Positions 1 through 8,998 of a stretch of 22,506 bases of DNA are shown here, piece by piece. The translations under genes and the position numbers were made by a program. Each line of letters begins with the position of its first letter. Positions within the stretch are counted from its first letter, which is position 1. The notes below the pieces were generated by a model. The model did not search any database, had not been told where the DNA came from, and saw only the letters and a list, made by a program, of their open reading frames with translations. The DNA is from Acidimicrobiia bacterium (lineage in GTDB: Bacteria > Actinomycetota > Acidimicrobiia > Spongiisociales > Spongiisociaceae): positions 1 to 22,506 of the forward strand of contig JBFGLM010000065.1 in NCBI GenBank assembly GCA_041576165.1, given 5' to 3'.

Positions 1-338
1 AGGAGCGCAGTGTGGCACGATGCGGCGCCCAGGGGCACTCCCTGGGCAGCTTTGAATTTCGCCAGCTGCGGATCCTCCGTCAGATCGATGCTGGCACCGA
101 GATCTTGCAGGTACCCGACCCACCCTGAGCAGCATCCTCAGCCGGGTGCCTGGTGAACCTCGAGGCTGAGGCCGGAGAGGTCGGGCCCGGAGGCCCCGGA
201 GGCCCCGGCAGTGGTCTGGGTGGCATCCGTGGTGCCTCCACCACACGCCGCCCCGGCCAACGCCAGCAGGATGAACCAAAGCCGGACTCTGATTGGCGCT
301 CCTTCCGCAGACGGCAGCAATCGTACAGGGACGGCCAC
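1..338 (-). CDS. DUF411/CopG-family copper-binding lipoprotein with in-frame TGA (138-140) at the first Cys of the CxCC motif; candidate selenoprotein; 3' end runs off the window
   Basis: Translating through the TGA gives ...LSLEVHQAPG-U-GCCSGWVGYLQDLGASIDLTEDPQLAKFKAAQGVPLGAASCHTAL, open to the window edge. This matches the DUF411 pattern xxxP.CGCC..W..L...G.....K...GVP....SCHTA. Signal peptide with lipobox-like LAGAAC and a Thr/Gly linker. Confidence 0.85.
87..136 (-). promoter_or_regulatory. Putative bacterial SECIS hairpin directly 3' of the UGA
   Basis: On the mRNA, GAUGCUG (136-130) pairs perfectly with CAGCAUC (93-87). An inner stem CAGG(G)UG/UACCUG closes a G-rich loop GGUCGGG that begins about 17 nt after the UGA. 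Folded by eye only. Confidence 0.55.
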
Positions 339-442
339 CGCTTGCTGACGTCAGGCCAGTCCGTTCCCCGGCCCACCCCCATGCCCAAATAGGGGGCATT
401 CCTGATGGCTCTTCGTACGAGATTCGATCACAGTGCGGGGCA

Positions 443-1021
443 GTGGATACTCCCAAGCCAGTGGCGCGGTTCAGTACCAGCCGGGAACGCAGACTCTGGC
501 TGCTCGCCGGCGCAGTGGTGGTCGCTATCTACTCCACCCTTAGCTTGGCGACCACTCTGGCGGCAGAGCTGACCAACAGCGAGCTGCTGGATAACATCTC
601 GGCGCTGGCGCTCCTGATTCTCTTTGCTGTCATCTTGCTGGTGGGCCTGAAGGGTCAGGCGCCGAGCGCGGCCCGGGTCGCCATCGCCGTCGGAATCGTG
701 GCCGTCTACGCACTCGTGTTTCTCCGGATGGCCAGCCCCATCGAACGATCGCATCTCTTCGAGTACAGCCTCCTGGCAATTCTCGTCCACGAAGCGCTGA
801 TCGAGCGGTCGAATGCCGGTCGCAAAGTGGCGCGTCCCGGCCTGCTTGCAGTTGGCGCAGTCTCATCGATAGGGGTGTTCGATGAGTTGATCCAGCTGAC
901 CATTCCGAGCCGCGTGTTCGATCCGATCGACATCGGATTCAACGTCTTTGCCGCAACCATGGGTGTGACCCTTAGTGCTGCCGTCGCTTGGGCCGTCCGC
1001 CGCCGGGACCGTGCTTCCTAG
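443..1021 (+). CDS. VanZ-like family membrane protein
   Basis: Several hydrophobic helices; motifs ERSHLFEYSLLA and DELIQLTIPSRVFDPIDIGFN are typical of VanZ-like proteins. Start taken at GTG 443 (GTG 461 is an alternative) because the longer ORF start at 293 overlaps the divergent gene. Confidence 0.8.
   Translation: MDTPKPVARFSTSRERRLWLLAGAVVVAIYSTLSLATTLAAELTNSELLDNISALALLILFAVILLVGLKGQAPSAARVAIAVGIVAVYALVFLRMASPIERSHLFEYSLLAILVHEALIERSNAGRKVARPGLLAVGAVSSIGVFDELIQLTIPSRVFDPIDIGFNVFAATMGVTLSAAVAWAVRRRDRAS
635..690 (+). repeat. 56-bp exact direct repeat, copy 1 (inside the VanZ-like gene)
   Basis: ttgctggtgggcctgaagggtcaggcgccgagcgcggcccgggtcgccatcgccgt is identical to 1525-1580. Confidence 0.95.
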
Positions 1022-7576: not shown

Positions 7577-8998
7577 CTAGCTACGGACGGCGAGGTGGTT
7601 GATCTCGGCTGGGCTGAGGGCCCGGTCAAAGACGTAGGCTTCGTCGATGAGCCCATCGAAAAAAGCGAACCGATTACCGGACACGTTCGCTTCGGCGGAG
7701 CCGATGTTGACCGGTGTGGCCGTGTCCGGGATCGCGGTGAAGATGTTGACCCCGTGGGCCGTTTCGACGCCGTTGATGTAGAGGCGCACATCGGTTCCGT
7801 CCCAGGTTCCCGCCACGTGGGTCCATGTGCCGGTGGGGACGGTGGTGGTTGCCGGTTCGTACTCTTCCCAGTTGTACACGAACCGCAGCACGCCGCCCTT
7901 GATGTCCAGACCCCACGCCACACCGGAGCCGGCACCGGCCGGGGCGAAGGGGCCACCGGAGGCGTACTTGGTGACGATTTCATACGGTCCGGCGGATACG
8001 GCATCGGGTCGGACCCATGCCGCGATCGTGATGGCGGAGAAGCCGTCCAGGTTGCCGGCACCGTCCGGGTCTGGGACGGAACCGTGATCGTCTACCCCAT
8101 CCAAACGCAGAGCCGCCACATTGCCGTCCACCGGTGCAATGGAGGCGGTTTCAAACGACGGCCCGACAAGGTTGGCCGGGTGCCCGTCTGCCCCATCGGC
8201 GGTGGGCGTGGCCTGGTCGTCAAAACACCAATAGGCCACCGCATCCCAGGTCGTGTAACAGCCCGCCACTGTGACGGTCGCCGACGCCTCCTGGCCGGTC
8301 TCGCGGATCAGCGCCGTGTTGACATATGTGCCCGACGCGGTGTACGACCGCCCGTAGTCGACTGCGCCGGTGTCGCTGAACACGAACGTGTCCGCCCCAT
8401 CATCGACATGGACGGTACCGTTCACAACCACGCTTGGGGACTCGGGCAAGACGAAGCCGGCTTCGCCGCTCGCCGCGCCATTCCTCCCCTTGGTGGCCTC
8501 CACCCCGACGGTCACCGCAGCCGTGTACACCGCGTCGGCCACCGGCGCGAACACGACCGAATACGGAAAGCAGTGGCTGGCCCCAGCGGGAAGGGTCGGC
8601 ATGCCTGTCGTGTCCACCGCAGCCACAGCCGCCGTGAAGGTCTTTCCCTTCCCGCCGATCCGATAGGTGACCGCTGCTGTGACATCCAACCGCCCAGATT
8701 CTCCCGCGGCAGGGTTGGTCACACACACCTCCCCGCCTGCAGAGACCTCATCAGACGGCGCGTTCTTGGTGACCGCCACGGTGTAGTCCGCCAACGCCGC
8801 CGTCCCACCCGACAGGGGAAGGTGATCGGACGCAGCGGTTTTGGCGATTGACCAGCTGAACGACTGCGACCAGTGGCCCGTCGCGGACACGGTCACATCC
8901 AACGTCGAACCCGGCTTGGGCGGTTTCGCCCCGGCCCCCGTCGCCACCAACGAAGCAGAGATCCCTAAGACGGTGGCGACGATCAACGCTCTGCGCAT
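7577..8998 (-). CDS. Secreted protein with a C-terminal LamG-like jellyroll (Laminin_G_3) domain
   Basis: RBS GAAAGGA then ATG at 8998; signal peptide ending AGA; AYW.FD, LDGVDD, TIAAWV, WTHVAGTWDG...RLYING, FFDGLIDE...FDRALS..EI. Confidence 0.88.
   Translation of the reverse strand: MRRALIVATVLGISASLVATGAGAKPPKPGSTLDVTVSATGHWSQSFSWSIAKTAASDHLPLSGGTAALADYTVAVTKNAPSDEVSAGGEVCVTNPAAGESGRLDVTAAVTYRIGGKGKTFTAAVAAVDTTGMPTLPAGASHCFPYSVVFAPVADAVYTAAVTVGVEATKGRNGAASGEAGFVLPESPSVVVNGTVHVDDGADTFVFSDTGAVDYGRSYTASGTYVNTALIRETGQEASATVTVAGCYTTWDAVAYWCFDDQATPTADGADGHPANLVGPSFETASIAPVDGNVAALRLDGVDDHGSVPDPDGAGNLDGFSAITIAAWVRPDAVSAGPYEIVTKYASGGPFAPAGAGSGVAWGLDIKGGVLRFVYNWEEYEPATTTVPTGTWTHVAGTWDGTDVRLYINGVETAHGVNIFTAIPDTATPVNIGSAEANVSGNRFAFFDGLIDEAYVFDRALSPAEINHLAVRS

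Follow-up and report, generated by a model that had tools for sequence, protein, structure and literature searches.

A truncated Acidimicrobiia CopG/DUF411 gene with an in-frame UGA, a member of an uncatalogued and very probably selenocysteine-containing variant of the family

The stretch of DNA analysed here (the window) is the first 22,506 nucleotides (22.5 kb) of contig C65 (JBFGLM010000065.1) from an Acidimicrobiia bacterium (assembly GCA_041576165.1), and the subject of this report is a gene at its very start that encodes part of a CopG/DUF411 protein and carries an in-frame TGA where the family has a conserved cysteine. The gene lies on the minus strand (window 338..1). A 66-codon open reading frame (ORF) begins at a GTG at 338 and reaches the in-frame TGA at 140..138; as the original prediction had claimed, the frame goes on beyond this codon, staying open for 45 more codons to base 3 with no other stop and reading GCCSGWVGYLQDLGASIDLTEDPQLAKFKAAQGVPLGAASCHTAL. 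The read-through product has 112 residues, in which the residue encoded by the TGA (U) is number 67, in the context HQAPG-U-GCC. In order, the fragment comprises a signal-peptide-like N-terminus (…IRVRLWFILLALAGAAC), a Thr/Ala/Gly-rich linker and the stretch …LEVHQAPG-U-GCCSGWVGYLQDLGAS…GAASCHTAL. Contig C65 itself begins at window base 1, so the truncation of the gene reflects the end of the contig and not only the choice of window. Its features are as follows.

1..338, minus strand: 5' two-thirds (112 of about 175 codons) of the proposed selenocysteine-type CopG/DUF411 lipoprotein gene; 104/112 residues are shared with the orthologue L061
338 or 320, minus strand: start codon, uncertain between GTG at 338 and TTG at 320
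246..338, minus strand: putative signal peptide, residues 1-31, with an Arg-containing n-region and the hydrophobic stretch LWFILLALAGAA
243..245, minus strand: lipobox-like Cys, residue 32, a putative lipid-attachment site; the Cys is invariant in orthologues
138..140, minus strand: in-frame TGA, the proposed selenocysteine codon, residue 67, position 1 of U-G-C-C
129..137, minus strand: G-C-C, the rest of the CxCC motif (here UxCC, containing UxxC), aligning to the CGCC of 6wis_A
107..123, minus strand: candidate selenocysteine insertion sequence (SECIS) hairpin GUGGGU-CGGGU-ACCUGC, 6 bp with a 5-nt loop, taken from the RNAalifold consensus
12..20, minus strand: S-C-H motif, residues 107-109, the start of the Pfam DUF411 model; PF04214 matches begin here in orthologues

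The complete orthologues of the gene score 85-90 bits on PF04214, for which the gathering score is 27 bits. The closest full-length orthologue, L061 from an Acidimicrobiia metagenome-assembled genome (MAG), is 94% identical to the fragment in nucleotides; it is a complete, intact 175-codon gene that ends in …PFEF-TGA and scores 85 bits. A profile of the read-through proteins matches PDB 6wis_A/6wje over the whole domain (E = 4.6e-29). The entry 6wis_A is named 'DUF411 domain-containing protein' in the profile search, and Foldseek names 6WIS/6WJE 'Copper resistance protein copG'. The CxCC motif is present as U-G-C-C, with TGA instead of TGY at its first position: the U column aligns with the first C of '...nCGCCkdW...' in 6wis_A, and Cys homologues have TGT/TGC in this column, which bears out the original placement of the TGA at the first Cys of CGCC. 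The G, C and C that follow the U position are invariant in both a 12-sequence and a 52-sequence alignment. Also invariant are the S, C, H and T of the SCH stretch (52/52 aligned sequences) and the two methionines M142 and M149 of PGMP...PGM (52/52 aligned homologues); these methionines belong to the part absent from the window.

An AlphaFold2 model of L061, made from the 52-sequence alignment, has a mean predicted local distance difference test score of 84.8, with domain blocks at 86-98 and the PGMP…PGM loop at 72. In Foldseek the model matches CopG (6WJE/6WIS) with template modelling (TM) scores of 0.80-0.82, a root-mean-square deviation of 2.4-2.7 Å and 36-39% identity (E ~2e-11 to 8e-11), and it matches thioredoxins and glutaredoxins weakly. 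Residue U64 of L061 sits between strand 55-60 and helix 68-76. In this predicted structure U64 occupies the place of the N-terminal Cys of the thioredoxin CxxC motif, and U-G-C-C includes the UxxC arrangement.

The N-terminal layout, signal-like and hydrophobic, is the same in the orthologues, and the lipobox-like Cys is invariant in 12/12 and 52/52 sequences. The window lipobox is G-A-A-C, with an atypical Gly at -3, and the orthologues have L/V-A/T-A/G-C. An exported lipoprotein is plausible because the signal-peptide-like N-terminus and the invariant Cys are conserved; lipidation at residue 32 is putative. Twin-arginine-like signals precede the lipobox in L041, L050 and L051 (RRSFL/RRHFL; L049 has RRHF), which belong mostly to family f18; the window copy and most other orthologues are without such a signal. 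The selenocysteine-type CopG family may thus be split between export by the twin-arginine translocation (Tat) pathway and by the general secretory (Sec) pathway.

The in-frame TGA recurs. Matches at E <= 0.001 were obtained in 16 of 61 related genomes, with 12 strong places, two in the source genome itself and ten in nine others. All 12 have exactly one in-frame TGA, and all of these TGAs fall in the same alignment column, a pattern far beyond chance. Nine weaker matches (E 2.9e-5 to 9.3e-4), which have no stops and cover the signal peptide and linker only, were dropped as unrelated lipoproteins. In 401 genomes sampled evenly from the class, the gene is present in 18, and 19 of its 22 places have one TGA; the remaining three are full-length Cys forms in genomes G419 and G393, plus one C-terminal fragment. 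For several carriers, G360 and G351 among them, the genome is complete. A scan of species representatives gave 79 loci and 71 motif instances (17 TGA, 49 TGC and 5 TGT), proportions that are biased towards Cys, as one of the two search patterns required it; nine loci gave no motif. Once duplicates had been removed, the collection comprised 31 TGA-form and 54 Cys-form DNA sequences, all distinct. Each TGA form of full length continues past the codon to the conserved C-terminus, which is ...PF[DE][FY] in most.

The coding sequence behind the TGA is under purifying selection. The ratio of nonsynonymous to synonymous substitution rates (dN/dS) downstream of the TGA lies within 0.04-0.54, with a median of 0.22 (182/190 usable pairs, 20 sequences), and the window's own 45 downstream codons give 0.14-0.17 against near relatives, at dS 0.64-0.82. 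The two comparisons proposed in the original prediction, a search for the TGA at the same column of related genomes with conserved coding downstream and an estimate of dN/dS after it, thus both come out in its favour. The close homologues are mostly TGA forms, with Cys sisters, and are not uniformly Cys. Downstream lesions are absent from the 94%-identical L061; for the window copy their absence holds over the 45 codons that can be read. TGA is not reassigned in the source genome, because it is the usual stop codon there: 1551 of 2041 long open frames end in TGA. In addition, 14 of 19 TGA-form genes terminate in a second TGA.

A tree of 85 distinct domains (trait column masked, 125 columns, a quick method with Shimodaira-Hasegawa-like approximate likelihood ratio test (SH-aLRT) support only) places the 31 selenocysteine (Sec) forms, together with two Cys forms, in one group (SH-aLRT 93), inside a clade (98) that also holds two Cys sisters. 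The other 50 Cys forms, mostly alphaproteobacterial, lie on the opposite side of the tree. The Cys forms nested in the Sec group are G419/L043 and the Ilumatobacteraceae MAG L075, and at least three Sec/Cys state changes are required. Such a pairing of Sec and Cys forms fits the usual selenoprotein pattern. The nearest loci come from Acidimicrobiia MAGs, in agreement with the actinobacterial lineage first proposed. Three loci from MAGs assigned to other phyla, L063 (Gemmatimonadetes), L064 (Gemmatimonadales) and L071 (Saprospiraceae), have selenocysteine-type CopG on very short branches beside Acidimicrobiia/Actinomycetota sequences, which suggests mis-binned contigs or recent transfer.

From these sequence comparisons we infer that the UGA at 140..138 is very probably decoded as selenocysteine. 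On this reading, the window holds an incomplete gene of a selenocysteine variant of CopG that has not been catalogued.

Public gene calls for the family are truncated: 64 of the best 120 database matches begin after the CxCC motif, so that the records are cut after the TGA, as had been expected of standard pipelines. The remnants are annotated 'DUF411 domain-containing protein' and are without the metal-binding motif; P0027, on the L060 contig, where the TGA is present, is an example. That gene callers find downstream starts, with 44 of the best 120 database matches being 104-aa ORFs that begin [MV]YLQ, speaks for a different reading, in which the UGA mostly terminates translation and yields a 66-residue lipopeptide, the DUF411 part being made from an internal start or, as in a regulatory switch, only with selenium. 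UGA recoding in bacteria is, moreover, never fully efficient. We nevertheless regard predominant termination as very unlikely. The split would part the first residue of the motif from the rest of CxCC, and it would remove the signal peptide from a domain that needs export. Furthermore, the internal starts vary among homologues (95, 102, 104 and 112 aa), and the codon at the 104-aa position is GGG, not a start, both in the window and in most orthologues.

Decoding as selenocysteine is also favoured by the gene content of the source genome, in which selA, selB, selD and tRNA-Sec, sought as the original prediction had proposed, are all present. There are two tRNA-SeC genes, at C1:33378-33466 and C145:1292-1384, and two selA and two selB genes above curated cut-offs, in the regions C24:55713-58621 and C100:605-3505. 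The two selA-selB regions share no megablast match, and the two tRNA-SeC genes are 88.75% identical over 80 nt. The one selD (C1:171385-172317, minus strand) has an in-frame TGA of its own (…SFSHGAG-U-ACKLGP…) followed by two hairpins, and the selenophosphate synthetase would itself be a selenoprotein. In the class sample, SelA is found in 275 of 401 genomes (a tally that includes four unpublished genomes, G254, G315, G424 and G295), among them all 16 TGA-form genomes and both Cys-form genomes. This co-occurrence is supportive only, related genomes not being independent.

The same observations bear on a reading in which the UGA is read through without Sec, by a near-cognate Cys or Trp tRNA or by a local suppressor, giving a CxCC or WxCC protein. 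The weakness of the SECIS candidate (see below) is in keeping with such read-through, which we consider exceedingly unlikely given the Sec machinery of the source genome and the presence of SelA in 16/16 TGA-form genomes of the sample. In the alignment column of the codon the homologues have Cys, the residue that normally corresponds to Sec; TGA is the main stop of the genome, and most of these genes also end in it; and the only tRNAs found with anticodon UCA are typed as tRNA-SeC.

The source bin consists of 161 contigs with a total of 5.1 Mb and is 96.5% complete and 7.5% contaminated. It holds a second copy of the gene at the end of contig C119, with 96.7% nucleotide identity over 332 nt and unrelated flanks. 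The C119 copy has a 9-nt in-frame deletion in the linker, keeps the TGA, and differs synonymously in the next codon (GGA vs GGG). Public contigs over the gene include many short alternatives, and one 390-nt contig of run X1 extends 346 nt beyond window base 1; this is consistent with an assembly that broke at a strain bubble or a near-identical repeat. The original prediction had asked whether the reads support the TGA, and the codon is kept in contigs of four sequencing runs from four studies, with no variant at 138-140 and a synonymous variant at base 135; this check is to be read with the provisos that contigs drop rare variants and that the best-matching run may be the source sample. The metatranscriptome contig X15 covers window 125-276, reaching no more than 13 nt past the TGA on one side, and does not bridge the codon under a 31-nt rule; as DNA carry-over is possible, it is not counted as evidence of expression.

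Several genomes hold two TGA-form copies, some of them about 2.5 kb apart on one contig, and the duplication recurs. The cases are G049 (C57:5761-6279 and 8307-8807), L058 (at 634 and 3180), G360 (two places on C1) and the source genome itself (C65 and C119).

A recent pseudogene, formed by a TGY-to-TGA nonsense mutation in a Cys-type CopG with a merely residual open frame behind it, would suit a fragment at a contig end with an unassembled 3' end and a 59-nt duplicated gene fragment nearby, yet it is hardly credible and is contradicted because the TGA recurs, being shared by 31 different sequences from many families within the class, and because the downstream dN/dS is 0.22, the 94%-identical orthologue is intact and the second copy in the genome has the TGA with a synonymous change directly after it. 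The TGA is not a lesion, since it is kept in the second copy and in the orthologues, the frame behind it is intact and constrained, and the Sec machinery is present.

For selenocysteine to be inserted at the UGA, a hairpin shortly behind it would be expected to act as a SECIS, and a candidate is found. From 21 TGA forms, RNAalifold predicts a 6-bp helix with a 5-nt loop, 17 nt in all, starting 14 nt past the UGA (window 123..107). In this helix 96% of the cells pair, vs 34-65% when the partners are slid, and six changes from U-G to U-A are seen. All six pairs form in 29 of the 31 Sec forms vs 1 of the 54 Cys forms, and that Cys form nests in the Sec group; the two exceptions among the Sec forms fold other hairpins at the same place. 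The 17-nt upper stem-loop of Escherichia coli fdhF, which lies 11 nt past its UGA, reportedly suffices for recoding. The present hairpin resembles the fdhF SECIS in being a 17-nt hairpin close behind the UGA with a G at the second loop position; it differs in its spacing of 14 nt, in its loop, which is CGGGU and not GGUC, and in that no bulged U was seen. The hairpin may thus function in recoding, and we treat it as a candidate SECIS. Two other structures were rejected. A longer lower stem (GAUGCUG/CAGCAUC), given by RNAfold on the window, is lost in several orthologues, as judged by eye, and is not predicted by RNAalifold; and an alternative register (loop GGUCGGG), favoured by RNAfold for the window sequence, is broken in orthologues with GAG and CTA codons.

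A number of observations weigh against the interpretation of the gene as a functional selenocysteine-type CopG, and several of them concern the hairpin. It has only 6 bp, including two G-U pairs, and overlaps the conserved WVGYL codons. It shows one compensatory change only (G-C to C-G), and 20 of 500 shuffles reach the observed covariation scores. The window's 42 nt gain no stability over shuffled versions (z = +0.79, with 150 of 200 shuffles equalling or surpassing them), and behind the codon the Sec forms have a mean folding energy of -15.5 kcal/mol, not lower than the -18.7 kcal/mol of the Cys forms. The difference in hairpin formation between Sec and Cys forms is confounded by ancestry, the Sec forms being one clade. 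No Rfam match was found; a search of window 1-400 at E <= 10 gave chance-level rows for eukaryotic small nucleolar RNAs and microRNAs only. Other points concern the genome and the gene itself. The bin may mix two Sec-using organisms, or one genome may have two sets of the machinery. The last ~66 codons of both copies are absent from the 96.5%-complete bin in searches with PF04214, with the C-terminal part of an orthologue (tblastn) and with blastn. This missing 3' part comprises the Pfam core together with the two Met. As each copy stops at the end of a contig and the codons concerned are unassembled in the source genome, the intactness of the window copy cannot be shown. The fragment itself has no match in Pfam or NCBIfam, because PF04214 (48 positions) covers the C-terminal half of the protein and begins where the window ends; the assignment to CopG/DUF411 made in the original prediction thus stands by way of the orthologues and 6wis_A, and a direct match of the fragment is missing. 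Finally, no copper gene is conserved beside the gene in 16 TGA-form loci and the window, as judged from clustered ORFs.

Among these clustered ORFs, only overlapping frames of the gene itself recurred widely. Five flanking ORFs from the loci were compared with Pfam and gave acyl-CoA dehydrogenase, DUF222-HNH, ABC transporter and CoA-binding matches and, for one, no match. The two flanking ORFs of the window gave a sub-threshold VanZ match and sub-threshold SnoaL-like matches. The first of these, the adjoining divergent ORF at 293-1021, encodes a membrane protein. A 59-nt direct repeat with 98% identity is found at window 635-693 and 1525-1583, and its second copy, which duplicates part of the VanZ-like ORF, lies within a stretch without a convincing gene. 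The repeat looks like a duplicated gene fragment, and it is the only one found; the pseudogenes that had been said to lie nearby are not borne out. Elsewhere in the source genome, ARAGORN gives two unusual calls, at C12:72185-72278 and C151:1207-1732: a tRNA that it does not type, with the four-base anticodon ccgc, and a second transfer-messenger RNA, of the permuted type, besides the normal one on C25.

If the UGA is decoded as selenocysteine, the gene would be a working gene for an exported, probably lipid-anchored, copper-handling protein of the CopG/DUF411 family in which the first Cys of CxCC is replaced by selenocysteine. SelB with Sec-tRNA(Sec) would be recruited by the short hairpin 14 nt past the UGA, and the ribosome would read on through the UGA to a product of about 175 residues. 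By homology to Pseudomonas CopG, the Sec would be the U of a UxxC arrangement at the N-terminus of helix 1 in a thioredoxin-like fold, and may serve as a soft ligand, as a redox-active residue or as both, in a copper site formed by CxCC and two methionines. A site of this kind would support the redox handling of Cu(I)/Cu(II), or the transfer of copper, on the outer side of the cytoplasmic membrane.

In a review, CopG is described as binding a tetranuclear Cu cluster with its CxCC motif and two neighbouring Met, as contributing to copper resistance under anaerobic conditions, and as a protein proposed to oxidise Cu(I) and pass Cu to cuproproteins (PMC7558416). The present protein, in part by way of its orthologues, shares with Pseudomonas aeruginosa CopG (PF04214; 6WIS, 6WJE) its sequence homology, predicted fold, position of the CxCC motif, SCH, GHVP and the PGMP...PGM Met pair, and like CopG it is probably exported. 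In contrast to the P. aeruginosa protein, it has a UGA (proposed Sec) at the first Cys, a lipoprotein-type signal and a Thr/Ala/Gly-rich linker, and, across the loci examined, its gene is not consistently linked to copA, cus or multicopper-oxidase genes. The lineage is probably monoderm and actinobacterial, whereas CopG is found in the Gram-negative periplasm. Cys-type DUF411 proteins, from the same class and from Alphaproteobacteria, Gemmatimonadota, Chloroflexota and Vulcanimicrobiota, are alike in length and motifs; they differ in having TGT/TGC at the codon, in that 1/54 can form the 6-bp hairpin, and in that the WVGYL stretch varies.

Similar features are found in the bacterial thioredoxin-fold UxxC selenoproteins: Sec (proposed, in the present protein) takes the position of the first Cys in a CxxC-type motif where helix 1 begins, Cys homologues exist, and a SECIS candidate lies within the coding sequence directly behind the UGA. 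Of particular interest is the possibility of a natural copper-selenolate site, in which Sec would be a bridging or terminal ligand, or the redox residue, of the multinuclear Cu cluster of an extracytoplasmic CopG. By analogy with CopG, we see about even chances for such a site. To our knowledge, selenium bound to copper would then be seen in a natural protein for the first time.

The family does not appear in the catalogues of selenoproteins considered here. In the part of a 2026 review that includes Table 1, with its 119 prokaryotic selenoprotein families, none of PF04214, DUF411, CopG, COG3019, UxCC or UGCC was found, and the sole mention of 'DUF4' in that part is DUF466 (PMC13188914). The predicted metal-related selenoproteins of the same table, a CopZ-family 2Fe-2S-binding protein and the SO_0444 Cu/Zn efflux transporter, belong to protein families different from CopG. 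The family was likewise not found in the portions covered of PMC9312934, BSepDB (PMC13326102) and deep-Sep (PMC12013277); supplementary survey tables, such as those of a groundwater-MAG study mentioned in PMC13188914, could still list it. A full-text search found no paper that joins DUF411 with selenocysteine. The combination of CopG with selenocysteine gave no relevant paper by title or abstract, and neither CopG with selenoprotein nor selenoprotein with copper resistance protein gave a relevant paper among the matches listed. In NCBIfam release 20.0, no model matches the read-through proteins.

The window gene would thus be part of a widespread selenoprotein family that has been shortened by annotation and is missing from current catalogues. 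If this is true, selenium would be found at the copper site of a protein exported by members of a largely aerobic class of actinobacteria, selenium use would be tied to copper homeostasis, and the family would offer a natural system for Se-Cu chemistry. A copper-selenolate site, if it exists, would further provide aerobic Acidimicrobiia with a way to oxidise Cu(I) or deliver copper that depends on selenium.

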